A stretch of 29,301 nucleotides of DNA from an uncultured archaeon (GTDB lineage: Archaea > Asgardarchaeota > Lokiarchaeia > Sigyniarchaeales > SOKP01): contig CAZGJX010000047.1 in assembly GCA_964525635.1 (NCBI GenBank), forward strand, positions 1-29,301, read 5' to 3'. This document shows positions 2,155 through 27,061 of this stretch, piece after piece (the stretch's first letter is position 1; each line of letters begins with the position of its first letter). Under the pieces are notes generated by a model, which was not told where the DNA came from, searched no databases, and was given only the letters and a program-made list of their open reading frames with translations. A program made the translations under genes and the position numbers.

Positions 2155-2506
2155 GGTTTTATAAAACGAGTTCAATAGATTCTAAGCGTTATAAAGAGAT
2201 TTGATTAAAGGATTGTTTTTTTTTATTTTTATTATTTTTAAATTATTGTTATATTTTGTTATTATGATATTTCTGTAAATTTATTTGATTTGAATAATCC
2301 TATTAAATAAAAAAACACCATTCAAAAGTTTCAATTTCATTCCAAATGGGTTTATATTGAAGATTAGTTTAACTAGCATAATATTGATTAAATTTAAAAA
2401 AAAACTCAGAAATCTTTTGTTAATATTATAAATACGTTGATTGATCAGAATTGAATTAATCTAAAAATCAAAATTTAATCATATATAGCCAAAACAAATC
2501 AAATTA

Positions 2507-5500
2507 ATGTTAAAAATGTCAAAAATAAAACAATTTGGAATATTGTTATTTATTATAATTATTGGGTTTACTCCAAATATTTTCAATCAATTTAAATATT
2601 ATAAAAATGAAAAAACCTCCCTAATTTCTAAAAGTTCAGTAGAATTTAATAATTGGACTATTATGGTTTATCTTGCTGCTGATAATAATTTAGAATCTGC
2701 GGGATTAGATGATTTAAATGAAATGGAATCAGTGCAACTAGAAGAAGGTATTGAAATAGTTGTATTATTTGATCGAGCAGTAGGATATACTAATGCAGAT
2801 GGTGATTGGACAACAACAAGACGATATAATATAACATACGACGAAGATGAAGACCATATTAATTCTGATTATGAAGATCTCGGAGAATTAAATATGGGAG
2901 ATCCTGATACTCTCGAAAATTTTATTAATTGGTCACAATCAACCCATGCTGCTAATAAATATGCTTTAATATTATGGGACCACGGTCTTGGAGTAGGATC
3001 TGGTTCTAATTTAGGAGGTGCATGTATTGATAGATATAGTGAAAATGATTACTTAGATATTTTTGAAATTGATCAAGTAATAGCAGGAAAAGGTATTGAT
3101 CTCTTAGGATTTGATTGTTGTATTATGGGAATGATGGAAATTGCTTCACAATATCAAACAGACGCAGGTGTTTTTGTTGGAAGTGAATGTTCAGAACCCT
3201 TAGATGGATGGGCATACGATTTAATCATTTTAGAATTAAATAAAAATCCAAATTGTACTTCTGCAGAATTTGGAGAAATTATATGTGCAACATATGAAGA
3301 ATCTTATAGATATGACACTTATTGGCAAGATCTTCCGATGGTTTCCTTGGATTTAACTAAATTCGCAGAATTAGAACTAATTTTAAACAATTTTCTATCC
3401 TATTTAAACCAGGATTATAATAGATCTATAGCAAATATAATTCAGAAAGCAATTGATGATTCCCAAATAGTTGATTCTGATGAGGATTATATTGATTTCG
3501 GAGATTTATTTTACAATTTAAAATCATTTTTCCATTTTGCATACCCAAATTTATATCAATTTAGTTCGGATATCTTGGAATTATATGAAGAAATGGCGTT
3601 GTCATTTTATATTGCAAGACATAGAACAAAAACATTAACTGGTGCATCTATTCAAATATTACCAGATGAAGAAAACCTTGGGTATCAAAATTTAGATTTT
3701 TGTATCAACACAACATGGTATAATTTCATTACAAAACAAAAGAGCATAGCTGATACACTTATAGATGATATATATGAACCTAATGATAGTTTCGAAGAAA
3801 AGCAAGGATTGTTATTCTCAGAATCACTTAATTTAACTTGGTCTGATCAAGATTGGTTTGAAATTTATGTAATTCAAAATGTATCATTTTCTCTAATTTT
3901 AAATGAAACTGTATTTCAATCTAATCAGGTTGAGATTATTCTGTATGATAGATATTTAAATTTAGTTGATAAAGATCCTTTCAATATTACCCTTGAATTA
4001 GAACAATCGGGGTATTATGCAATTTGTATTAATGCATCTCTCAGATTTGTTGAGATCCCTTATACTCTGACGTATATATCTGATATTGTTGATGATAATT
4101 ATGAATATAATAATGATTTTAATGCAGCGCCATTAATTACTTCTGGAAGTTATTTAGATCTAGTGTGTTTAGATGATGATTTTTATCAAATTCATGTTCC
4201 TGAAAGTAGTGTATTAAATATTTCTATTTGTGTCCCTGATGATCATCTTAATTTATATTTTTTCTTATATGATTCTTCTCAAGATTTGATTGATGATTGG
4301 GAAATATATTATTACTCTGGATGGTATAAGATGCGTTATTTCATGAATAATGAGGAGGATCTTTATATAAGAATTAGACCTTACAATGAATTTGGTTTTT
4401 ATTCATTCAATATATCAATTGAGTTAGTGGAAGATGATATTTTTGAAGAAAATGATGTTATTGAAAATGCCTGTCCAATTGAAACAGGTTTTTATTCTGA
4501 TCTAGTAATATATGATATAGATTATTATAGTATAACTATTAATGAAGGGAAAACTCTAGAGCTTGATTTATATTATTCCTTTCACACTATGTATCTTTAT
4601 ATTTATGATAATGAAATGAACAAAATTAAATCAGAAACAACAAGGATATATTATAATTCCAAGTTTGTGTATCTCAATACTCTTTCATTTTATTCCTCTA
4701 TATCACAAAATATTATTATTGTTGTTTATTCTAGTGGATCTGGAAGTTTTGGGCAGTATTCTTTGAAAATAAGCACACCTTTCCAAAAAGATGATATATA
4801 TGAAGAGAATGATTTTGCTGAAGTTGCAGCATTTATTAAACCAGGATTTTATTCTAATTTAAAACTATTAGATGATGATTTCTATAAGTTTAGTATACAT
4901 CAAGAGGAATCTTTTGAGATTGTCATTTCTTCAGATAATATAAAGTATTTTAACTTAAAAATTTATGATTCAAATATGGATAAAATCATAGAGTCTTCTT
5001 ATTATAATGAGGGTGATCCATGTTATTATTATTCTAACATAAATCAGGATATAATTATTCAAATCTCACCATGTTATGAAAATATAGCTGTGATTTATTC
5101 TCTGAATATAACTTTAGTGCAAATAAATGATGATGGTTATGAACAAAATGATTTTTTTGAAAATGCTTTATTAATAACCACTGGATTTTATCCTGATTTA
5201 ATATGTAATGATTATGATTATTACAATGTAAGTCTATTAGAAGGGGAATCAATTGAAATTTCACTTGAATCCGAATTATATTTGTATCTGTATTTATATG
5301 ATTCTGATCGAGATTCTATTACTTATGAACATGGTAGAGATATCTTTTTAAAATATTTTTCACATTCTAATCAATCACTAATAATTTATGTCAGAAATAT
5401 CTATAAAGGACTATATGGTAATTATTCCTTAGAGATCTCTAAAGAATTAATTACTGAGGATGATTCTTTTGAACAAAATGATTCTCCAGAAACTGGTAGA

Positions 5501-7999
5501 GAATTAACTTCTGGATATTATTCTGATTTGATAGCTTTGGATGATGATTATTATAATTTTTCTATAAATGCAAATGAATATCTTGAGGTTACTTTATATT
5601 TTATATATGATGGAATAATAGATATTGATCTCTATCTTTACAATTCTAATATGGATCTGCTTTTATCTTCATATTCTAATAAGGGTAATAAGAGTTTGAC
5701 TTACTATAGTGAGATTGAGCAAACTTTAATAATTTATGTTGAATATGGAATATGTGTTGGAAATTATTGTTTAAGTATCAATTTATTAGAGGATGATCCA
5801 TTTGAAGATAATGACTTTCTTGAAAATCCAGCAAGTCTTTCACCTGGTAATCATACTAATTTGATGCATTTGGACGATGATTACTATAATATTTCTGTTC
5901 AAGCAGGAATGAATTATTTAATTGTTGTTTCACCAAATGATAATTACGTCTATAAACCCTATTCGATTACAATATATGATTCTGAACTAAAATATATCTC
6001 TTCGGGTGTAAGCAATGGTATAATTCGTTATTATGGATTTTCCTCTGATAATAATGACTCTATCATTATAAGAATCTATTATTATAATTCTGACATTAGA
6101 ATAGGAAATTATAGCTTAAATATCTCTGTTTCTTTAGCTGTTGATGATATTTATGAGATAAATGAATTTAATGAAGAGAATGATTCTCCTGAAACTCCAA
6201 CATATATTGATTCTGGAGATTATGAGGACCTTATCTGTAATGATTATGATTGTTATAATATTTCAATTGAAGCAGATTTTATTATTAGAGTAAGAGTGAA
6301 ATTTTTCCACAGTTATTTTCACTCAGGATATATACAATTAGGTGATGCTAATTTGCATTTTTTAAATGATTCTGAATATGAAGATGGGTTTTATTATGTT
6401 AGTTATCTTTTTAAAGAGGCTCAAGATATAATAATTGCAATATCCACTTATAGAGGATTTTCAGCCTATTCTATGAGTGTTTCACTTCATCCATTAGACG
6501 ACGATTTATATGAGGAAAATGATTCTCCAGAAAACGCAACAGTCCTGATACCAGGATATTATGGTAATTTAAAATATTATGATGATGATTTTTATAATCT
6601 TACTTTACATGAATATGAGATCCTTGATATCCAGATTGAGAGTAAGTATTCAAGCTACTTTAGTTTTACTCTTTTTGATTCTAATATGGATATATTAGAC
6701 GAAATTAATTTTCATTATTACTATTATTATAATAATAGATTTTCTTTAAGATATTTTTCACAAATTAATCAATCAGTTATATTACAAGTTTTTTGTACAT
6801 TTAGATCAGGATCTTATACTTTAAATATATCAACAACCTTTATTGGTTCAGATGATAGCTTTGAAGAAAATGATAATCCTGAAAATGCTACATATATTGA
6901 TTCTATTAAATATAATTTAATTTCCTTAGATGATGATTATTATAAATTAATCGTAGAAAAAGGGGATTTTGTAGAAATTAATTTACAATTTAATACCAAC
7001 TATCTCAATTTTGATCTATTTATATTCAATTCTTCTATGTCCTTACTTTATAGTTCAAATTCAAATTATGAATGTGAATTAATACAATTTTATTCTGAAA
7101 AACATGAAACTCTTATTATATTGATCCATTCTATTTTAGGAAGTGGTATTTATACATTGGATATTTCAATAGTTCATTATCAGGAAGATATGTACGAAGA
7201 AAATGACACTCCCGAATCTGCTATTAATATTGGTGAGGGTGATTATATTGATCTAATGTGTGGAGATAATGATTTTTATAAAATTACAAATTATGCAGGT
7301 TGCATCCTTTCTATTCGGTTATCATCTTATGAAAACAATATTGATCTTGACTTAAAAATCTATAATTCTGATATGATTTTATTAAATTCTTCCATATCCT
7401 GCAGCTCAGATGAATATATTACTTTTTCCTCTTGGATGGATACTGAAATTTTCATATTAATCTACTCTTTCTCTGGTTTTGGAGTTTATAATTTAAGTAT
7501 AGATATCACATGGATTGCAGATGATTCTTATGAAGATAATGATACCCCTGAAACTGCAACATTAATTTCGAGTGATACCTATACTGGATTAGTATGCTTA
7601 GATATGGATTATTATACCCTTTATCTTGAGGAAGATGAACAATTTGAAATCTATATTGAATATGATCTTACCTATTTTGAACTATATTGTATTATATATG
7701 ATTCTGAAATGAATATTTTAAATTCGTCCGAATATTTCTACCATTGCAATCATTTGAGTATTGTATTAACTCAGAATCAATCAATTTTTATTGATATTGG
7801 TTCTAAAAATGGAATAGGTCTATATAATTTTACCATTACTATTAAAGATCCTATTCAAGATCTACCCATAATTACTAAAGAAGAATTTAATACGTTAATT
7901 CTAATAATTACTTTTGGATTTATTAGCTCATCCATTTTAATTCTAACAATAGCTTTAAAATTGTATTTAAGAAGAAGGGAATCAAAATTTTTATCATAA
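2507..7999 (+). CDS. Membrane-anchored clostripain-family (C11) cysteine peptidase with 12 PPC-like repeats
   Basis: N-terminal hydrophobic signal; WTIMVYLAADNNLE, ELNMGDPDTL, catalytic His in LILWDHGLG and Cys in LLGFDCCIMG; twelve [DE]DxxExND repeats; C-terminal TM followed by RRRESK. Confidence 0.92.
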   Translation: MLKMSKIKQFGILLFIIIIGFTPNIFNQFKYYKNEKTSLISKSSVEFNNWTIMVYLAADNNLESAGLDDLNEMESVQLEEGIEIVVLFDRAVGYTNADGDWTTTRRYNITYDEDEDHINSDYEDLGELNMGDPDTLENFINWSQSTHAANKYALILWDHGLGVGSGSNLGGACIDRYSENDYLDIFEIDQVIAGKGIDLLGFDCCIMGMMEIASQYQTDAGVFVGSECSEPLDGWAYDLIILELNKNPNCTSAEFGEIICATYEESYRYDTYWQDLPMVSLDLTKFAELELILNNFLSYLNQDYNRSIANIIQKAIDDSQIVDSDEDYIDFGDLFYNLKSFFHFAYPNLYQFSSDILELYEEMALSFYIARHRTKTLTGASIQILPDEENLGYQNLDFCINTTWYNFITKQKSIADTLIDDIYEPNDSFEEKQGLLFSESLNLTWSDQDWFEIYVIQNVSFSLILNETVFQSNQVEIILYDRYLNLVDKDPFNITLELEQSGYYAICINASLRFVEIPYTLTYISDIVDDNYEYNNDFNAAPLITSGSYLDLVCLDDDFYQIHVPESSVLNISICVPDDHLNLYFFLYDSSQDLIDDWEIYYYSGWYKMRYFMNNEEDLYIRIRPYNEFGFYSFNISIELVEDDIFEENDVIENACPIETGFYSDLVIYDIDYYSITINEGKTLELDLYYSFHTMYLYIYDNEMNKIKSETTRIYYNSKFVYLNTLSFYSSISQNIIIVVYSSGSGSFGQYSLKISTPFQKDDIYEENDFAEVAAFIKPGFYSNLKLLDDDFYKFSIHQEESFEIVISSDNIKYFNLKIYDSNMDKIIESSYYNEGDPCYYYSNINQDIIIQISPCYENIAVIYSLNITLVQINDDGYEQNDFFENALLITTGFYPDLICNDYDYYNVSLLEGESIEISLESELYLYLYLYDSDRDSITYEHGRDIFLKYFSHSNQSLIIYVRNIYKGLYGNYSLEISKELITEDDSFEQNDSPETGRELTSGYYSDLIALDDDYYNFSINANEYLEVTLYFIYDGIIDIDLYLYNSNMDLLLSSYSNKGNKSLTYYSEIEQTLIIYVEYGICVGNYCLSINLLEDDPFEDNDFLENPASLSPGNHTNLMHLDDDYYNISVQAGMNYLIVVSPNDNYVYKPYSITIYDSELKYISSGVSNGIIRYYGFSSDNNDSIIIRIYYYNSDIRIGNYSLNISVSLAVDDIYEINEFNEENDSPETPTYIDSGDYEDLICNDYDCYNISIEADFIIRVRVKFFHSYFHSGYIQLGDANLHFLNDSEYEDGFYYVSYLFKEAQDIIIAISTYRGFSAYSMSVSLHPLDDDLYEENDSPENATVLIPGYYGNLKYYDDDFYNLTLHEYEILDIQIESKYSSYFSFTLFDSNMDILDEINFHYYYYYNNRFSLRYFSQINQSVILQVFCTFRSGSYTLNISTTFIGSDDSFEENDNPENATYIDSIKYNLISLDDDYYKLIVEKGDFVEINLQFNTNYLNFDLFIFNSSMSLLYSSNSNYECELIQFYSEKHETLIILIHSILGSGIYTLDISIVHYQEDMYEENDTPESAINIGEGDYIDLMCGDNDFYKITNYAGCILSIRLSSYENNIDLDLKIYNSDMILLNSSISCSSDEYITFSSWMDTEIFILIYSFSGFGVYNLSIDITWIADDSYEDNDTPETATLISSDTYTGLVCLDMDYYTLYLEEDEQFEIYIEYDLTYFELYCIIYDSEMNILNSSEYFYHCNHLSIVLTQNQSIFIDIGSKNGIGLYNFTITIKDPIQDLPIITKEEFNTLILIITFGFISSSILILTIALKLYLRRRESKFLS
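3766..7845 (+). repeat. Intragenic array of 12 ~105-120-aa PPC-like beta-sandwich repeats
   Basis: Units start DDIYEPND, DDNYEYNND, DDIFEEND, DDIYEEND, DDGYEQND, DDSFEQND, DDPFEDND, DDIYEINEFNEEND, DDLYEEND, DDSFEEND, EDMYEEND, DDSYEDND. Most continue with GxYxxL..DxDYY and end in GxYxLxI. Confidence 0.88.
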
Positions 8000-8022: not shown

Positions 8023-8162
8023 TTGCACTTATAATGAGCTTTTTTCGAACCCGTGTCATTCCTACATATTCTTTCAATTCTTGAAAGCTACGATGATGAA
8101 GACCAATAAATTTTTAGAAATGAGCGATCCATTCAAAGCAAAAGAATTTATTATTTTGTTTT
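8023..8162 (+). repeat. Dispersed ~140-bp direct repeat B, copy 1
   Basis: Aligns by eye to 13529-13667 with 16 mismatches and 1 gap (~88%), including identical 33-bp (CCCGTGTCATTCCTACATATTCTTTCAATTCTT) and 32-bp blocks. Confidence 0.95.
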
Positions 8163-9070: not shown

Positions 9071-11920
9071 ATGTTAAAATATGAAAACAGGAGAGTATTG
9101 AGTATTATTTCTATTATTATCTTGGTTTCTAGTGTTTCTATAGGTGTAATTAATTTAACTATAGGACCAACATCTAGTTCAAATATACAGATTGCAGATA
9201 CTGCAAATGATGATTGGTTATATGTACAAGGAAATCGTATAGTTGATGCACAGGGTAATGTAGCACTTCTCTCGGGTATAAATTGGTTTGGATTTGAAAC
9301 ATCTACGCAAGGATTTGACGGTTTATGGCAGGTAAGACTGGATGACTCTTTAGATATGATGGCAGATCTTGGATTTAATTTACTACGTCTTCCTTTATGT
9401 GTTCAATTAGTAACAGAGTGGATTAATGGGAACATTCCCTTAGCAGGAAGTATAAATACTTGGGTAAATGCAGATATTGTTGGTATCACTAGTCTTGAAC
9501 TTCTAGATATGGCAATAGAATATTGTGATTCAATTGGAATGAAAGTTATGCTTGATATGCATAGAGTTGTTAATAGCCATATGACGAATCTTTGGTATTA
9601 TGATGACTATACTTATCAAGATTGGTTGAATGCATGGGATTTTCTTACCGAGAGATATGCTGGAAATGATGCTGTTGTAGCAATGGATGTATTCAATGAA
9701 CCTCATGGTAACCCTACTCAATATCCTGAAGATGAGGTAGCTAAATGGGATGGTTCCAGTGATACAAATAATTGGAAAAAAGCTGTAGAAGATGTATCCG
9801 CAATTATTCATGCTCGAAATCCAAATGTTCTTATTGTAGTTGAAGGTATAGAATGTTATCCAAAATCAGGATATGATTATTCTTCAAATGATCCAGATGC
9901 CTATTATTATAATTGGTGGGGTGGAAATTTAAGAGCAGTAGCAGATTATCATATTAATATAGGAAGACAAGATAAACTTCTATATTCTCCTCATGACTAC
10001 GGTGCAAGTGTATTTGCACAACCTTGGTTTTACCCTGGATTCAATAAGGACACACTTTACAATGACGTTTGGCGAGATAATTGGTATTATATTGTAGAGA
10101 ATGGAGTTACTCCATTATTAATAGGAGAATGGGGTGGACCTCTAAGTGGTGATACACAGATATGGATGGAAGCCATTGCAGAATTTATGGATGAGATGAA
10201 TATACACCAAACTTTTTGGTGTTTTAATCCTAATTCTGGTGATACTGGAGGTATTGTAGGTAATGATTGGGCAACTATAGATCAGGCAAAATATAATACA
10301 ATTGAAAGAGTATTATGGAAAGATAATTCTGGAAGATATGTATCTCTTGATCATGCAAGAGGACTTGGTAGTAGTGGTACTAATATCGTTGAATATTATG
10401 CTAATGGTAATCCACCTCCTTTACCTGGAGGAGGAGATGATCCTGTTGATATAACTCCTCCTGCTACTCCTACAGGACTCAGTGCTGCAACAATAAGTTC
10501 CTCACAGATTAACTTGGATTGGAATGATAATACAGAATCAGACTTAGTAAATTATCGCATCTATCGTAGTACAAGTGCCAGCGGTACTTATACATATATA
10601 GATCAAACCACTTCCAGCTCATATTCTAGTACAGGATTAAGTGCAAGTACAACTCACTATTATAGAGTTAGTGCTGTTGATACAAGCGGTAATGAAAGTC
10701 CACAAACCAATTATGCAAGTGCAACTACTCAATCAGGTGGAACTACAGGAGTTTCAACAAGCGATAAATGGGGAACAATCGAAATTATGGGCGGAGAATA
10801 TATTGTACAAAACAATGTTTGGGGAACAGATACTTTACAGGAAATAACAGTACCAGATACAAATATAGCTAGCTTTGAAGTTACTATCTCTGAACACAAT
10901 CAAGGCAGTGTAGCTTCCTATCCTTCCATATTCAAAGGAGCCCATTGGGGTACAATTACAAACGGCTGGACCTCATATAGAGTAAATGAACTGCAATCCG
11001 CTTCCTATAGTTGGAGTGTAAGTGGTGTAGGTGTTTCAGGCACATATAATGTTGCTGCTGAAGCCTGGTTAGGTCCAAATCTCAACACAACTGATGGATA
11101 TAATGGCGGTGCCGAATTGATGATTTGGCTAGATAGTCAAGGTATGGTCCCAGCAGGGTCTCAAATTGGTACATTTGGTCAATATCAGGTTTGGTATTCT
11201 GACATGGGCTGGAATTATGTATGTTACTATCAAACTGGTCAGAATTCTGCAAGTATTAATCTTATGGACTTTATTAATCATGCTATCTCACTTGGTTATG
11301 TTGATCCAACATGGTATCTACATGATATAGAAGCTGGTTTTGAATTAATGAGCAGTGGTGCCGGGCTTACTCTTGAATCATTCTCTGCCTCAGTTGAGGG
11401 CAACAGTGTACCTAATCCGCCAATTCTTAATTCTCCATCAAATATTAATTATCAAGTAGGAGATACGGGTAATTCAATTACTTGGACCGCAACAGATGAT
11501 AATCCATCAACCTATACAGTTATTCGAGGTACTGCTCAAGTAGCTTCTGGTTCATGGAGTTCTGGTAGCCCAATAACCGTAAGTGTTGATGGTCTATCAG
11601 AAGGTACCTATACCTATACTTGTACCGTCAATGATGCAGATGGATTATCTGATTTTGACTCTGTTACTGTAACTGTCAGTGATATAGGTCCTACCGAAGG
11701 AGGTGATGTGTGGTTTAATACAGTACCTTCACAATCTGTAGGAGGTGTTTTCTCTACAGAAATATATGTTGATACTGGAACTCAAAATCTGGCCGCATAT
11801 GGTTTTGAAATTACTTGGGATCCAAGTATCATTACAGTCCCACTTGGTATTGATGGTGTTGAAGCAGGCGCTGACGGGTTCCTAGCTGCTGCTAATGTTG
11901 ACAATAATGCTGTACTATGA
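9071..11920 (+). CDS. Secreted modular endoglucanase: signal/TM - GH5 - Pro/Gly linker - FN3 - GH12 - Ig-like - cohesin (first half); frameshifts into 11917-12303
   Basis: GH5: GINWFGFET, MLDMH, acid/base FNEPH (Glu codon 9698), YSPHDYG, nucleophile IGEWGG (10127). FN3: DITPPATPTGL...YYRVSAVDTSGNES. GH12: YIVQNNVWG, SYPSIFKG, GAELMIWL (Glu 11114), IEAGFE (Glu 11342). Cohesin start: FSTEIYVDTGTQNLAAYGFEITWDPSII. Confidence 0.92.
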   Translation: MLKYENRRVLSIISIIILVSSVSIGVINLTIGPTSSSNIQIADTANDDWLYVQGNRIVDAQGNVALLSGINWFGFETSTQGFDGLWQVRLDDSLDMMADLGFNLLRLPLCVQLVTEWINGNIPLAGSINTWVNADIVGITSLELLDMAIEYCDSIGMKVMLDMHRVVNSHMTNLWYYDDYTYQDWLNAWDFLTERYAGNDAVVAMDVFNEPHGNPTQYPEDEVAKWDGSSDTNNWKKAVEDVSAIIHARNPNVLIVVEGIECYPKSGYDYSSNDPDAYYYNWWGGNLRAVADYHINIGRQDKLLYSPHDYGASVFAQPWFYPGFNKDTLYNDVWRDNWYYIVENGVTPLLIGEWGGPLSGDTQIWMEAIAEFMDEMNIHQTFWCFNPNSGDTGGIVGNDWATIDQAKYNTIERVLWKDNSGRYVSLDHARGLGSSGTNIVEYYANGNPPPLPGGGDDPVDITPPATPTGLSAATISSSQINLDWNDNTESDLVNYRIYRSTSASGTYTYIDQTTSSSYSSTGLSASTTHYYRVSAVDTSGNESPQTNYASATTQSGGTTGVSTSDKWGTIEIMGGEYIVQNNVWGTDTLQEITVPDTNIASFEVTISEHNQGSVASYPSIFKGAHWGTITNGWTSYRVNELQSASYSWSVSGVGVSGTYNVAAEAWLGPNLNTTDGYNGGAELMIWLDSQGMVPAGSQIGTFGQYQVWYSDMGWNYVCYYQTGQNSASINLMDFINHAISLGYVDPTWYLHDIEAGFELMSSGAGLTLESFSASVEGNSVPNPPILNSPSNINYQVGDTGNSITWTATDDNPSTYTVIRGTAQVASGSWSSGSPITVSVDGLSEGTYTYTCTVNDADGLSDFDSVTVTVSDIGPTEGGDVWFNTVPSQSVGGVFSTEIYVDTGTQNLAAYGFEITWDPSIITVPLGIDGVEAGADGFLAAANVDNNAVL

Positions 11921-12303
11921 TGGTTTCTGGATTTGAAGCAAGTGGAGTTGGTCCTAATGATCAATTACACTTATTAACCATTACATGGGAAGCTGTTGCT
12001 GAAGGTGAAACTGTCTTAGATTTATCTATTGACCAATTAATAGATTCAGATTTAAGCACAGTTGGTATTCCTACTGCAATTGATGGTAATGTAGTTGTTT
12101 CTGCACACTTAAATGGTGATGTGAACCATGATGATACTGTTAATATTATTGATGCATTATTAATTTCTCAATATTATGTAGGACAGGATCCTCAACCATT
12201 TTATACTGATGTTGCTGATGTGAATCATGATGGATCTATTAATATCATAGATGCGTTGCTTGTTGCTCAATATTATGTAGGAGAAATTCCTGAACTTCCA
12301 TAA
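11917..12303 (+). CDS. C-terminal continuation of the cellulase: second half of cohesin plus type-I-like dockerin
   Basis: LHLLTITWEAVAEGETVLDLSIDQL completes the cohesin strands. Duplicated Ca-binding loop-helix: GDVNHDDTVNIIDALLISQYYVG / ADVNHDGSINIIDALLVAQYYVG. Adding one G at ~11912 (GCT GGT ACT ATG) fuses the two ORFs. Confidence 0.88.
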   Translation: MMVSGFEASGVGPNDQLHLLTITWEAVAEGETVLDLSIDQLIDSDLSTVGIPTAIDGNVVVSAHLNGDVNHDDTVNIIDALLISQYYVGQDPQPFYTDVADVNHDGSINIIDALLVAQYYVGEIPELP

Positions 12304-12542: not shown

Positions 12543-13427
12543 ATGGGGATTATGTCTTTAAGTACTCAATCAATGGACCATCTAAATAATAATCAAATGG
12601 AAAATAAAAAATCTAAATATAAAATATATCTTTCTTTGGCAAGTCACACATTAGTTATATCATATATCTTATTATTTATTTTAATTTGGGATAGAATTAA
12701 TGCTGTTTTTAATCAAGACGAGACTTATATTACTTTCCTTATAATTTTAGTTAGGATATCGATAACAATTTCCTTTGCTTTAATCTTGTTATCTAAATGG
12801 TTTAAACAAGAAGCTATCTATCTCTCGGATGCCTACTTCCTATTTTCAGTATTTCTTATAATCTTAATTATGGGAAAAGCAATGGATTTCTATATATCTC
12901 TAATATCTTTCAAAGAGACTTATAATCCAGATTATTTATTATGGCTATTTAAAGTAAGGTATAGTTTGATAATTTTAAATGGATTACCTTTGTTATATCT
13001 TGGGCTAGAGATCCTGATGAATCTTTTTAAGGTGTATATTAAGGAATTTTCAAGAAAACAATTCATTATATTAAGAATATCTATATTAGCTATCTATTCT
13101 ATCACTCTATTGCTATATACTCTTCTATCACCCTCCCTTGAACTTATTCTTAGTGTTTTACCTATCGTAACTACAATTACGATGATTGGAATTATTGTTT
13201 TGTTCATACTAATGTATAGAATCAAACGCTTATCGCAAGCTCATGGATTAATTATAGGACTGGGTTTTATATTAATCATCATTTCATCACTGCTAAGACC
13301 GTCTCTCACTAAAGGACTTGAATTGAGATCCCTGATCACTGCTGAACTAATTGATCAGATACTTTGCATCATTATATTTATAGGTTTTATTAAAAAACCT
13401 CCATATATTAAATCCATTATAAAATAA
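12543..13427 (+). CDS. Polytopic membrane protein (~8 TM), function unknown; may start leaderless at ATG 12552
   Basis: Eight hydrophobic segments, some with embedded charges (MGKAMD, FKVRY, AELID). TTTATATA at 12523-12530 is spaced for a transcript start near 12552. Confidence 0.8.
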   Translation: MGIMSLSTQSMDHLNNNQMENKKSKYKIYLSLASHTLVISYILLFILIWDRINAVFNQDETYITFLIILVRISITISFALILLSKWFKQEAIYLSDAYFLFSVFLIILIMGKAMDFYISLISFKETYNPDYLLWLFKVRYSLIILNGLPLLYLGLEILMNLFKVYIKEFSRKQFIILRISILAIYSITLLLYTLLSPSLELILSVLPIVTTITMIGIIVLFILMYRIKRLSQAHGLIIGLGFILIIISSLLRPSLTKGLELRSLITAELIDQILCIIIFIGFIKKPPYIKSIIK

Positions 13428-13528: not shown

Positions 13529-13667
13529 TTGTACTTAAAATGAGTTTTTTTCAAGCCCGTGTCATTCCTACATATTCTTTCAATTCTTAAAAGTTGGGAT
13601 GACGAGACCAGTAGCTTTTTAGATATGAGCGATTTATTCAAAGCAAAAGAATTTATTATTTTGTTTT
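13529..13667 (+). repeat. Dispersed ~140-bp direct repeat B, copy 2
   Basis: ~88% identical to 8023-8162, same orientation. Confidence 0.95.
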
Positions 13668-21529: not shown

Positions 21530-22651
21530 TTGAGAGTGCAATCTTTTTATCAATCTCAAGCGTCTTCAATAAATCAATCAATGCCAATACTTCCATCAAG
21601 TCCAAGAGAAGATATCGCTATTCAAGCAGCACCACATATACCCCCTCCAAGTCCAAGAGAAGATATAGCTGTTCAAGCAGCACCACACATGCCACCACCA
21701 AGTTCTAGTTTTGATGTTCCTTCATGTGGAGAAGATCCTTGGGAAAAATCAAAAGTTGAACTTAATGATATCAAAAAAATTGTATCAGATATCGCCAAAT
21801 CAAATACATTATTGGTGTTTTCAGGTGCAGGATTATCGATTCCCTCAATTTCTTTCGATTCACTTCCAGCAATGGAACTTGAAGTAAAATATGCGATTCG
21901 CGATCGTAATTATTATGAGATTCTAAAAACTAAATTCCGAGAAAATATGCAAGAGTCTTACCTTTTTGGAACGGTTTTAAAGATTCTCAATTCAGACCCT
22001 AACCGCGGTCATAATGCGATTGTGAATTTGGGAAAGATTTTAGATACAACTGGAAAGAAACTCAAAGTAGTTACACAAAACCTTGATTATTTACACGAAG
22101 AAGCAGAGATTAATATTAATGGTGATAAATCTGATAAAATTAAAGATATACATCACATTCATGGATGGCTAAAAATTGCTACATGTCCAAAATGTAAAAA
22201 ATCCTTTGATTATGCAAAGGTTCTCGAGAAGCTTCATGATAATCTAGAAAATATTGACATCATGTTATGCGGAAGACATTCTGGAACTAATTGTAAAGGA
22301 GTATTAACACCTGATATGATTGAATATGGTGAAGATGTAGTTGATTATAAGAAATGTGAAGATATTGCTAAAATAACTGATATCATCCTTATTGTTGGAA
22401 CATCCTTAAGAGTGACTCCCGCAAATCATCTAGTTAATGTGGTACACAATAAGGGCGGAAAAGTCTTTCTCTTCAATCGATCAGACACAACAAAAGATCC
22501 ATTAGCAGATATTCATATTCGCTCAGATCTCGATTGCACATTACCATTATTAGTTCATGAACTAAAAAGATATATGATTGAAAATAATAAAGAATATCCA
22601 GAGATAATAGATAAAATAGAATCAATTAAAATATACATGGATGATAGTTAA
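21530..22651 (+). CDS. Sir2-family NAD-dependent deacylase-like protein (divergent), with Pro-rich N-terminal extension; true start probably ATG 21462 across an A-run frameshift
   Basis: FSGAGLS, PNRGH, VTQNLDYLHEEA, HIHG, CPKC...CGRHSGTNC zinc site, PDMIEYGE, VGTSLRVTPA, LFN. Confidence 0.9.
   Translation: MRVQSFYQSQASSINQSMPILPSSPREDIAIQAAPHIPPPSPREDIAVQAAPHMPPPSSSFDVPSCGEDPWEKSKVELNDIKKIVSDIAKSNTLLVFSGAGLSIPSISFDSLPAMELEVKYAIRDRNYYEILKTKFRENMQESYLFGTVLKILNSDPNRGHNAIVNLGKILDTTGKKLKVVTQNLDYLHEEAEININGDKSDKIKDIHHIHGWLKIATCPKCKKSFDYAKVLEKLHDNLENIDIMLCGRHSGTNCKGVLTPDMIEYGEDVVDYKKCEDIAKITDIILIVGTSLRVTPANHLVNVVHNKGGKVFLFNRSDTTKDPLADIHIRSDLDCTLPLLVHELKRYMIENNKEYPEIIDKIESIKIYMDDS
21597..21703 (+). 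repeat. 51-bp in-frame tandem repeat (2 copies plus a partial third)
   Basis: CAAGTCCAAGAGAAGATAT(C/A)GCT(A/G)TTCAAGCAGCACCACA... at 21597 and 21648, encoding SPREDIA[IV]QAAPH[IM]PPP twice. Confidence 0.93.
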
Positions 22652-24033: not shown

Positions 24034-24438
24034 CTATTTCCAGCTTTTTAGATTCAATTTAAAGATTTCTTTAAATTTTATATCTGTAGAATATATTATT
24101 TTAGTTCCATATTTTTTACAAGTCATAGCTATAATTTCATCATGAAGTTCGTGACTTTGATTATTCTCCAACATAAGTTTAAGGATTTCCAAATCAAAAT
24201 TATCAATTATTATATTTTCAGATACTTCCCATCTTTTAATAGCTTCCTTAACAGCATCAATTTTATCTATCTTCCTCATTTTCCATAATAATTCTGAAAT
24301 AGCAATAGTTGGAATAATGATTGTAATTTTTCCTTCTATAACATTCTGCTTTAGAGTTTGAAGTAATTTTGGAACTTTTGAATAGGTATAGTGGAAGTAA
24401 AATAAGACTTGAGCATCAATAATAGCTTTTTCACTCAT
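24034..24438 (-). CDS. vapC: PIN-domain ribonuclease toxin (VapC-like)
   Basis: 134 aa with four PIN acidic positions (IIDAQ, ISEL, LHDEII, YSTD); 16 bp downstream of an AbrB-type gene. Confidence 0.88.
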   Translation of the reverse strand: MSEKAIIDAQVLFYFHYTYSKVPKLLQTLKQNVIEGKITIIIPTIAISELLWKMRKIDKIDAVKEAIKRWEVSENIIIDNFDLEILKLMLENNQSHELHDEIIAMTCKKYGTKIIYSTDIKFKEIFKLNLKSWK

Positions 24439-24868: not shown

Positions 24869-27061
24869 TTGAAAATTCAACAAAAAAGGAGTAGAATAAA
24901 ATTGTCAAAGCTGATTCCTTATGATATTAAAGGTTCTACAGAAGATGAATTAATTAAATCCCTAGAGAATCCTATTATTGTATTTGTAGGCGCAGGCTTA
25001 TCAATACCTGCTCCTACGTGTGCTCCTTCATGGTGGACATTAACTCAGGAATTACTAGGTTCATTCTTTGCAAAAGTTTCAAAATTAAAAGAGATAAAGG
25101 ATATGGGAGATCTTGATTTTAAAATTAATCGTCAACCTGAGGAAATATTCGAGAATTATTCGGCAATATTAGGCGATAGATTTTATGAAGTATTTAGTGT
25201 TTTACAAGAGGGGCATGCCAATATGGCTCATATAGCCCTTGCTCGTCTTATGAAAAATAAAATGATTCACTCAATAATAACAACCAATTTTGATCGTTAT
25301 CTCGAAGAGGCTCTTGAAAGTGAGGGAGTGATCTATAATTTAGTTGTTACGAATAGAGAATTCAGTGATTATAAGGATTCAAATTTTCCAGAAAATACTC
25401 TTCTTAAAATACATGGCACTGTTGAACGTCCTGATACGATAGTATCTATTGCTAGTCAATATAAAACATCAAAGGGATTTTCGATACCTAAAGCGGAGGT
25501 TTTTAGACATTTAATGAGTAAATATGAATGCCTTTTCCTTGGTTATTCTGGTTGGGATTATCTCCATAATAATTATAGAAATTTTTGGAAAAAAACTTCT
25601 CCTGTTATTACAGGAATTATTTGGAATATTCGACCTGGAGAAAATGAAGGCCCCCCATTAAATGAAATTATTCCAATAGAATCTTTTAGATTCACTAAGG
25701 GAGAACTACCAAGAACATTAATTGAGACAATTAATAAAATGAGTATTGATAATACAAACCTCACGACTTTAAATAAAGAAGAGTCAGATTATGAATTTGA
25801 TAAATCAACAGAGAGACGTAGAATATGGTTAAATACATGGATTGAAAGAATGCCTTTACCATATATTTTAGGTCTCACACTAACAGATATACAAAATTAT
25901 AGTAAAGAATGGCAGAATTATTTGAATGATGGATGGAAAGAAACAAAGCAAAATGTAGATCTTCAAATGGATTATAATCAACAAATAATGGACCTAATGC
26001 AAAAATTAAATAGTGGAGAACTTCAATATGCTGATTATCAAGAGAAGGTAAAAGAAATTATGGTGAAAAAAGAAGAAAAAGTCACACCAGAAGAAAAACG
26101 ACAAAAGGGAGTTTTTGATATACGTCCAATATTGAAACTTCTCATTGATTCTGTTCTTAATATAGAAAAAGAAAATTTTGAAGAGGGTATAGATGCTTTA
26201 ATTCTTTCAATACTTTATTTATCTGGGAGAGAAATACTTAAAGAGACAAGTAAGCTACTTCCTGATGGAGATATTGAAAAGATCCATATACTCATTGATA
26301 CTAAGATAGATGATTTTTCTACTATGGAGGAAATTGATAAAATTATTAGAGAGCAATTTGAAGATATATTTAAACGCTGTTCTTCCCTTAAATGTGAAAA
26401 AAATGTTATAGCAAAACTAGAATTGGGAATAGCTGCTATTTGGATGCAGTTAATGAAACGAGAATTTGTTGAGGAAAATAAAGCTTTTACTTCACAAGAA
26501 GCAGATTATCTTACATATAAATTTCCTTCAAATGTTTATAAAAAAATCCGTGATATATATAATCCAATTATTGATGAAATAGAAGCTTTTAAGCTATCTT
26601 ATCGTCAATTAATATATTCAAATTTAGCTCAACTCGCAGAAGCTGGAGATAATTTAGAACTTGCTGAATTTGCTGTAAAATCTTCATTAAAAGAAACAGA
26701 AGGAAAGGTCACTGAAGCAACACTACCACCCATTCCTGAAGCTCTTGCAGGTTTCTATGATCGCCATCAGGACTGGAAGAACGCTTTATATTGGTATGAT
26801 ATCGCACTTGAAGGATTATTATTTGTAAATATAAGAGCATATACCGATAAGGTAACCTATCGAGCAATGTTTTGCAATGAGAAACTTGGAAATAAAAAAC
26901 GAGCTCTTGAAATAGGATTACGATATTTATCAGATTATTCAGGAATAGAACTAGCTTTTGCTCCTATTCATAAAAAACATGCAAGAACTATGATTTCTAG
27001 ATTGACCAATGAACTAGGATATTCTTCAATTGAGGATGCTATTGTAAATTTAGTTAAATAA
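24869..27061 (+). CDS. SIR2_2 (SIR2-like, NADase-type) domain protein with helical/TPR-like C-terminus; start may be TTG 24902
   Basis: VFVGAGLS, PSW, IITTNFD, LLKIHG, LFLGYSGWD; no zinc cysteines; C-terminal helical repeats (IYSNLAQLAEAGDNLELA, LAGFYDRHQDWKNALYWYDIAL). GGAG at 24888-24891 precedes TTG 24902. Confidence 0.88.
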   Translation: MKIQQKRSRIKLSKLIPYDIKGSTEDELIKSLENPIIVFVGAGLSIPAPTCAPSWWTLTQELLGSFFAKVSKLKEIKDMGDLDFKINRQPEEIFENYSAILGDRFYEVFSVLQEGHANMAHIALARLMKNKMIHSIITTNFDRYLEEALESEGVIYNLVVTNREFSDYKDSNFPENTLLKIHGTVERPDTIVSIASQYKTSKGFSIPKAEVFRHLMSKYECLFLGYSGWDYLHNNYRNFWKKTSPVITGIIWNIRPGENEGPPLNEIIPIESFRFTKGELPRTLIETINKMSIDNTNLTTLNKEESDYEFDKSTERRRIWLNTWIERMPLPYILGLTLTDIQNYSKEWQNYLNDGWKETKQNVDLQMDYNQQIMDLMQKLNSGELQYADYQEKVKEIMVKKEEKVTPEEKRQKGVFDIRPILKLLIDSVLNIEKENFEEGIDALILSILYLSGREILKETSKLLPDGDIEKIHILIDTKIDDFSTMEEIDKIIREQFEDIFKRCSSLKCEKNVIAKLELGIAAIWMQLMKREFVEENKAFTSQEADYLTYKFPSNVYKKIRDIYNPIIDEIEAFKLSYRQLIYSNLAQLAEAGDNLELAEFAVKSSLKETEGKVTEATLPPIPEALAGFYDRHQDWKNALYWYDIALEGLLFVNIRAYTDKVTYRAMFCNEKLGNKKRALEIGLRYLSDYSGIELAFAPIHKKHARTMISRLTNELGYSSIEDAIVNLVK

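Follow-up and report, generated by a model that had tools for sequence, protein, structure and literature searches.

A mosaic cellulase gene with a frameshifted cohesin–dockerin tail in an Asgard archaeon, and recurrent enzyme-borne cohesin–dockerin tails in related genomes

The 29,301-nucleotide stretch of DNA analyzed here (the window) is contig C47 of the Asgard archaeal genome GCA_964525635.1 (G000; 4.45 Mb in 245 contigs) and carries a cellulase gene whose cohesin–dockerin tail is interrupted by a frameshift. The gene falls into two open reading frames (ORFs) that lie in separate frames of the + strand. ORF1 (9071–11920, 949 aa) encodes a leader, a glycoside hydrolase family 5 (GH5) module, an FN3 domain, a GH12 module, a PKD domain and the N-terminal half of a cohesin, and stops at a TGA that arose through the frameshift. 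ORF2 (11917–12303, 128 aa) encodes the remaining half of the cohesin and a dockerin, has no signal peptide, and begins with an ATG that overlaps the stop codon of ORF1 (ATGA). With an X in place of the broken codon the joined frames yield 1077 aa, in agreement with the initial annotation, according to which restoring one base gives a protein of about that length; every module it had listed (hydrophobic leader, GH5, FN3, GH12, Ig-like, cohesin and dockerin) was recovered by Pfam, by a genus-specific hidden Markov model (HMM) or from the translation.

The N-terminus of ORF1, read by eye from the translation without a predictor, contains two arginines followed by a hydrophobic stretch of ~21 residues (~aa 9–30; 9095–9160, + strand), a putative signal peptide or signal anchor. 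The GH5 catalytic module (9263–10237, +; aa 65–389, PF00150, E 1.5e-47) carries the NEP (acid/base) and GEWGG (nucleophile) motifs, both of which line up in a comparison with the Pyrococcus horikoshii endoglucanase EGPh (3axx, E 1e-62). A linker domain of the FN3 type (10466–10708, +; PF00041, aa 466–546, 26.9 bits vs. a cut-off of 25) separates it from the GH12 catalytic module (10796–11398, +; PF01670), the sole GH12 in the studied genome, which was found by a profile search of the genome (E 8.8e-18) and by a scan of 10730–11500 alone (65.9 bits vs. a cut-off of 27, E 7e-18). The Pfam scan of the whole ORF1 gave no GH12 line, a technical quirk rather than an absence in view of the score of the separate scan. 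The GH12 part matches PDB entry 3wx5 (E 8.7e-49) with its ELMIW and GFE motifs in place, and Rhodothermus Cel12A (E ~1e-48). Family matches together with both catalytic glutamates assign the two modules to GH5 cellulases and GH12 endoglucanases, with predicted activity in each case. The matched core of the PKD/Ig-like domain lies at 11546–11677 (+; aa 827–869, PF22352, E 8e-07, 29.4 bits vs. a cut-off of 27) and is homologous to the Ig spacers in scaffoldins of the same genome.

The dockerin at the end of ORF2 is of type I (12115–12273, +; Dockerin_1, PF00404, E 2.7e-14, 53.6–54.6 bits vs. a cut-off of 22.9) and consists of two calcium-loop/helix repeats, each DVNHD..NIIDALL (D-V-N-H-D-x-x-x-N-I-I-D-A-L-L), so that the duplicated calcium loop and helix that define such modules are both present. 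The underlying DNA repeat (12114–12196 and 12213–12295) is 77% identical, the two protein repeats share 17 of 22 core residues, and the module could be aligned with the 24 other dockerins of the genome. A structural model of an intact ortholog from genome G003 has the two dockerin helices at the expected places. Ile-Ile at loop positions 10/11 had been pointed out earlier and is found in both repeats (N-I-I-D-A-L). Because the repeats are near-symmetric, as in clostridial dockerins, they would permit dual-mode binding. On cohesin-bearing tails, loop position 9 of the dockerin is Asn in both repeats and in most other dockerins it is Asp (..D-I-[IV]-D-A-L), a difference that could mark either shared ancestry or a specificity subtype. 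In intact relatives the dockerin forms part of an exported protein, whereas here it lies on the leaderless ORF2, out of frame with ORF1.

Intact PKD–cohesin–dockerin tails were found in three congeneric genomes (G001, G002 and G003): on a 973-aa GH48 protein (G002:C209), on a 987-aa GH48 protein (G003:C15), and at two contig ends (G001:C195 and G003:C164). The X-bridged 1077-aa protein is collinear with all four in an alignment, and the genus-specific cohesin HMM was made from them. On this profile the two cohesin halves of the studied gene are exactly complementary and divide at the break: HMM positions 1–71 are matched in the frame of ORF1 (11699–11914, +; E 9e-30) and positions 72–136 in the frame of ORF2 (11914–12108, +; E 5e-29). 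Identity to the intact cohesin of G003 is 79% for the N-terminal and 74% for the C-terminal half. An AlphaFold2 (AF2) model of the intact G003 cohesin–dockerin, built from a 24-row alignment that included both halves from the studied gene and thus representing the ortholog and not the broken copy, reached a predicted local distance difference test score (pLDDT) of 93.1. The top 50 Foldseek matches of this model were all cohesins (probability 1.00, template modeling (TM) score on target 0.73–0.78, root-mean-square deviation 2.2–3.5 Å), among them those of C. thermocellum, C. cellulolyticum, A. cellulolyticus, R. flavefaciens, A. fulgidus and C. perfringens. Since the ortholog model matches solved cohesins, the cohesin fold, a nine-stranded beta-sandwich, holds for the module family, of which the studied copy is a broken member; as a contiguous translatable domain it is absent from this gene, being divided between two frames. 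The earlier assignment of 11705–12100 to a cohesin is therefore borne out by the two HMM halves, the collinear intact orthologs and the G003 model. In the intact tails and the G003 model, only ~3–4 residues separate the last cohesin strand from the first calcium loop of the dockerin. Complex prediction for the G003 cohesin with its own dockerin gave scores of 0.15 and 0.10 (mark 0.32), which carry no weight either way.

The frame of ORF1 closes at the TGA at 11918–11920 and that of ORF2 is open only from 11908, so the frames share 11908–11919 alone (+), and a single insertion or deletion must be confined to these 12 nt. Where the intact tails read N-(N/S)-(A/V)-G-T-M-(M/S), one frame of the studied gene gives N-N-A-V-L-stop and the other T-M-M-V-S; because intact relatives have G-T-M at this place, a single base of the Gly codon is missing from the studied gene (gct g-t act, ~11912/11913). 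The Met-Met with which ORF2 starts also occurs inside the intact G002 tail and is thus ancestral. Ratios of nonsynonymous to synonymous substitution (dN/dS) against the intact tails are 0.16–0.33 upstream and 0.19–0.27 downstream of the break. This similarity on both sides indicates that the deletion is recent relative to the divergence of the tails.

One reading of the break is that it reflects a sequencing or assembly error and that an intact GH5-FN3-GH12-PKD-cohesin-dockerin enzyme of 1077 aa is made. Metagenome-assembled genomes (MAGs) do carry occasional indel errors, and the downstream frame is open, conserved and similar in dN/dS to the upstream part. However, the break was also checked in Logan contigs, which are assembled per run and independently of the MAG, from four salt-marsh metagenome runs representing four samples, one of which may itself be the source of the studied DNA. 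Contigs from all four runs cross position 11912 with 0 mismatches and 0 gaps, one contig per run (11549–12196 in two runs, 11814–12196 and 11850–12044 in one each), and no indel variant was given. The site (GCT GTA CTA TGA) is not a homopolymer, an identical, shortened 949-aa product is known from a second contig (P0001), and no near-identical intact protein was found among 5.8 billion proteins. On the strength of the gapless contigs, the second occurrence of the 949-aa product and the missing intact allele, the frameshift exists in the DNA of the sampled population, and an error appears quite unlikely. Programmed recoding, by –1 ribosomal frameshifting or transcriptional slippage, would instead supply some full-length protein and thus both free and docked enzyme. 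The downstream tail is perfectly preserved and the shift required is indeed –1, a kind known from an archaeal fucosidase gene, but the 12-nt region offers neither an X XXY YYZ slippery heptamer nor a homopolymer and intact relatives need no recoding, which leaves this explanation only a slim chance. In a functional split, the bifunctional cellulase of ORF1 would act unattached, and ORF2 would yield a small dockerin protein of its own through termination–reinitiation at the ATGA. The overlap of the ORF2 ATG with the ORF1 stop would suit such coupling, and short dockerin-bearing frames (154 and 196 aa) occur elsewhere in the genome. Yet ORF2 should be neither exportable nor able to fold its cohesin part, since it has no signal peptide and starts in the middle of a beta-sandwich, and its Met-Met is ancestral and internal in the intact tails, making a split very improbable as well.

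A further alternative concerns the whole contig, which might have been binned wrongly and stem from a bacterium such as a member of Spirochaetales or Bacillota, in which case the cellulosome-like genes would not be archaeal. The GC content of the cellulase gene (33–40%) exceeds the 25% of the contig flanks, its GH5 shares 46–55% identity with GH5s that bear dockerins in Spirochaetales, Bacillota and Acetivibrio, and cohesin–dockerin tails that are 42–45% identical occur in Spirochaetales MAGs. Against this, the flanks have the GC value of the genome, and a Rieske-oxygenase gene of this contig is 81–84% identical in genomes of the same family and 52–56% in genomes of the same order, single-contig ones included. 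Moreover, four congeneric MAGs from separate studies contain homologous cassettes on many contigs. Flank GC, the Rieske gene and the recurring cassettes fit horizontal acquisition of bacterial-type genes by an Asgard host rather than mis-binning, which we regard as the least probable of all the alternatives. Congener genomes are labeled Promethearchaeota archaeon (JAGXOA01, JAFGOA01) and their proteins 'Candidatus Lokiarchaeota archaeon'; with the Rieske gene tracking family and order, these labels uphold the archaeal, Asgard host proposed initially.

The proteins encoded at this locus are hence split, and the initial description of GH5, GH12, cohesin and dockerin in one chain does not stand: the break occurs in contigs from four samples, and as far as DNA goes the circumstance named at the outset as fatal to it, a fixed frameshift that leaves the dockerin unattached, is what all four samples display. 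Due to the frameshift, the gene as it is encoded now does not have leader, catalytic modules, cohesin and C-terminal dockerin on one polypeptide, the layout of the Ruminococcus bromii enzyme Amy4. We infer that the full-length GH5-GH12-cohesin-dockerin chain was the ancestral state and is not the present product. Overall, the locus is probably best explained as an Asgard mosaic cellulase, ancestrally a secreted GH5-FN3-GH12-PKD-cohesin-dockerin protein, whose tail was broken by a recent one-base deletion. In the ancestral form the dockerin would have plugged the enzyme into membrane-tailed scaffoldins with two to three cohesins each, and the enzyme-borne cohesin would have offered an extra socket that a dockerin of the same type could occupy, even the one on a second copy of the enzyme. 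Such a socket would lengthen or branch the complex, as in Amy4. What the gene yields at present is most likely a bifunctional endoglucanase, either free or anchored by its leader, that ends in a non-folding half cohesin, and the dockerin-coding remainder would be a fresh relic.

Several observations weigh against this account. The Pfam Cohesin profile (PF00963) matches the N-terminal half alone at E 0.059 and 14 bits and the C-terminal half not at all, below threshold, and even the intact orthologous tails score 20.8–22.3 bits vs. a cut-off of 24.1, although they match over model positions 7–139 of 139 (E 1.6e-4 to 4.6e-4). The scaffoldin cohesins of the studied genome clear the same cut-off (24.1–32 bits), as does one tail from the sister lineage (24.6 bits). 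Depth over the break is low (2.4–8.7x) and Logan contigs drop rare variants, so that a minority intact allele is possible; the four salt-marsh metagenomes all date from one year and perhaps from a single campaign. The 128 downstream codons, still open and conserved, are also compatible with continued translation through recoding, and the encoded product is read from DNA alone. Lastly, the dockerin partners of the enzyme-borne cohesin are inferred.

A census of cohesins and dockerins across the genome, suggested with the initial annotation, revealed 25 dockerins, 17 cohesins and four membrane-tailed scaffoldins. The dockerins are of one sequence type (GDVNxDGxVDI[IV]DALL...) and mostly C-terminal; their catalytic families were checked for the present gene only, and in relatives dockerins are found on GH5, GH9, GH10 and GH48 proteins. 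Besides the split cohesin, the genus-specific HMM detected 16 cohesins in eight ORFs. Four of these ORFs are scaffoldins on C10 (4303–6618) and C110 (2913–5243, 5565–7235 and 10721–12373), paralogs with near-identical N-terminal leaders and C-terminal tails in which two to three cohesins alternate with PKD/Ig domains. All four have a signal peptide and end in an IPGY-hydrophobic-RKRRQ tail that resembles archaeal C-terminal sorting signals, and no NCBIfam sorting-domain model matched the scaffoldin on C10, the only one scanned. For scaffoldins of 760–765 aa (P0040, P0126) the precomputed Pfam annotation lists PKD-like domains only and no CBM3 (carbohydrate-binding module family 3), which is found on enzymes of relatives instead. 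Three ORFs contain a single cohesin, two on C29 with a similar tail (PGYD, hydrophobic stretch, basic end) and one on C57 without it. A 2099-aa ORF on C90 with three cohesins and one dockerin is the second protein of the genome to bear both module types. With multi-cohesin scaffoldins and many dockerins in one genome, the predicted gene content is that of a cellulosome-like system. GH48 was found neither by protein query nor by tblastn of the assembly (estimated to be 100% complete); a Pfam-family search of the genome did not reveal it either, but there the controls were silent too. Unlike the studied genome, the congeners G002 and G003 do have GH48-PKD-cohesin-dockerin proteins.

Enzymes that carry both a cohesin and a dockerin, as proposed from this one gene, proved to be a real and recurrent design in the genus and its sister lineage, with tails on GH48, GH9, GH10 and GH5 proteins. 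Four database proteins have such tails on GH48 (tail identity 76–100%), and tails that are 70–72% identical are found on P0131 (1436 aa, GH9-CBM3-FN3) and P0132 (1649 aa, GH48 + GH5 + CBM3). The latter two proteins also illustrate that multi-catalytic enzymes with an intact tail of the same kind exist elsewhere. In a second archaeal MAG (CAYPTZ01) the tails occur on GH9-CBM3, GH10, FN3-CBM3 and GH5-F5/8C proteins, and one further protein with a tail is labeled Hodarchaeota. Spirochaetales MAGs contain the more distant tails mentioned above, on GH43 proteins and on DUF3160 proteins. Enzyme-PKD-cohesin-dockerin tails thus recur among Asgard MAGs, and Spirochaetales MAGs have such tails on other proteins. 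A quick tree places the enzyme-borne cohesins of this genus, including the studied one, in one group, with the second cohesin of scaffoldin C110_10721 as its nearest neighbor and the remaining C10/C110 scaffoldin cohesins adjoining, a position that fits a shared dockerin specificity without showing it. One Spirochaetales MAG (JAFGWI01, 2291–5233) encodes a 981-aa dockerin-DUF3160-cohesin-dockerin protein with a tail 42% identical to the Asgard tails, and scaffoldin-like Spirochaetales proteins match too. The archaeal system may have come from the Spirochaetales lineage or be related to it as a sister.

The assembly of the mosaic can be partly traced in relatives. In the sister species the orthologous GH5 (75–77% identical) belongs to a plain GH5-PKD-dockerin protein without FN3 or GH12, and the GH12 homologs are separate genes; a database search with the GH12 yielded no other protein that also bears GH5. 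The tail of the studied gene is closest to the GH48 tail of G003. A direct repeat of ~140 nt (8023–8162 and 13529–13667, 87–90% identical; only these two copies in the genome) encloses a 5.5-kb segment with the cellulase gene and a membrane-protein gene, and this pair could be an insertion or recombination scar. Separate GH5 and GH12 genes in sister species, a GH48-like tail in a genome without GH48, and the flanking repeats point to an origin of the GH5-FN3-GH12 mosaic by recombination among modular genes. The idea that the catalytic part was exchanged at an orthologous locus was also considered and is unsupported, as the flanks are not syntenic with the GH48-cohesin-dockerin loci of G002 and G003: downstream the neighboring genes are unrelated, and upstream they differ.

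The closest described protein is Amy4 of the R. bromii amylosome, with the architecture SP-GH13-CBM26-CBM26-Coh-Doc (PMC9112005). The cohesin of Amy4 binds the dockerins of Amy4 itself, Amy9 and Amy10, and multimers and mini-complexes form (PMC4611034). Amy4 is, like the intact Asgard enzymes, a secreted glycoside hydrolase in which a cohesin is directly followed by a C-terminal dockerin, but it is bacterial (Bacillota), acts on starch, and its binding has been demonstrated experimentally. The studied gene differs from it in two catalytic modules (GH5 + GH12), a PKD spacer, an archaeal host and a broken tail, and its binding is predicted only. By analogy, head-to-tail self-assembly is plausible for the intact relatives; given the bacterial precedent of Amy4 (PMC4611034), the idea is not conceptually new. 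Cohesin and dockerin are likewise combined in scaffoldins of complex bacterial cellulosomes, both in adaptors such as ScaC of Ruminococcus flavefaciens and in enzyme-bearing ones such as ScaA of Acetivibrio cellulolyticus (GH9, cohesins, dockerin), which plug into another scaffoldin and widen the number or kinds of enzymes (PMC11557425); ScaC and type I cohesins are among the top structural matches of the G003 cohesin. Adaptors, however, are mainly non-catalytic and usually use two cohesin–dockerin specificities, whereas one dockerin type is found genome-wide here and the Asgard cohesin occurs singly, at the tail end of ordinary enzymes.

With the clostridial type I cellulosomes (CipA of Acetivibrio thermocellus, CipC of Ruminiclostridium cellulolyticum) the Asgard system shares the type I cohesin fold (TM score 0.73–0.78 to 1ohz, 1aoh, 1g1k and 2vn6), the duplicated symmetric dockerin, and dockerins on GH5, GH9, GH48 and GH10 enzymes. 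In contrast to the clostridial scaffoldins, those of the Asgard genome are short (2–3 cohesins), have cohesins alternating with PKD/Ig domains and no CBM3 in precomputed Pfam, and end in the IPGY-transmembrane-basic tail in place of S-layer homology (SLH) domains or LPXTG. Dockerin positions 10/11 are Ile-Ile/Val in the studied genome and Ser-Thr in clostridia. In archaea, cohesins and dockerins have been known from non-cellulosomal proteins of Archaeoglobus fulgidus, whose cohesin 2xdh has a TM score of 0.78, and from anaerobic methanotrophic archaea (ANME), whose genomes contain many such proteins (PMC9012536). Those modules are not on plant-cell-wall hydrolases, whereas here they are found on GH5, GH12, GH48, GH9 and GH10 enzymes beside multi-cohesin scaffoldins.

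Descriptions of cellulosomes exist for bacteria and anaerobic fungi. In the literature searched (Asgard or Lokiarchaeota with cellulosome, cohesin or dockerin), we found incidental mentions only and no description of a cellulosome-like system in Asgard archaea, the prokaryotes closest to eukaryotes. For scaffoldins of Spirochaetes, the same literature yielded surveys of rumen metagenomes. The predicted archaeal system includes enzymes that would act as socket and plug at once, a design experimentally shown only in the R. bromii amylosome. A wider scenario, which we offer as a possibility somewhat more likely to fail than to hold, is that Asgard archaea of this order and some Spirochaetales extend short membrane-tailed scaffoldins by enzymes bearing cohesin and dockerin of the same specificity, giving branched or daisy-chained polymers from each anchor; the present locus would then be a GH5/GH12 mosaic in which the tail was gained and just lost. 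The GH5-GH12 mosaic, seen nowhere else in these searches, the repeat-bracketed cassette and the fresh frameshift suggest that modules are shuffled and lost on short time scales. If the binding proves true, the small cohesin–dockerin didomains would be a natural self-polymerizing tag, and the system would be evidence that salt-marsh Asgard archaea use acquired machinery of bacterial type to degrade plant cell walls. Attractive as it is, the full-length protein is not encoded by the organism today, and the part worth following up is the wider pattern of enzyme-borne cohesin–dockerin tails in Asgard and Spirochaetales genomes.

Among the neighboring genes, the other member of the repeat-bracketed cassette encodes a 294-aa multi-pass membrane protein without a Pfam match (12543–13427, +). 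Upstream of the cassette lies a gene for a 1830-aa secreted protein (2507–7999, +), which has a clostripain (C11) peptidase domain at the N-terminus, long stretches of degenerate repeats, a transmembrane segment with a basic tail at the C-terminus, and no dockerin. Further downstream, a SIR2 gene (21530–22651), a PIN-domain gene (24034–24438, minus strand) and a gene for a 730-aa SIR2_2-domain protein (24869–27061) are clustered and may represent a defense-type neighborhood.

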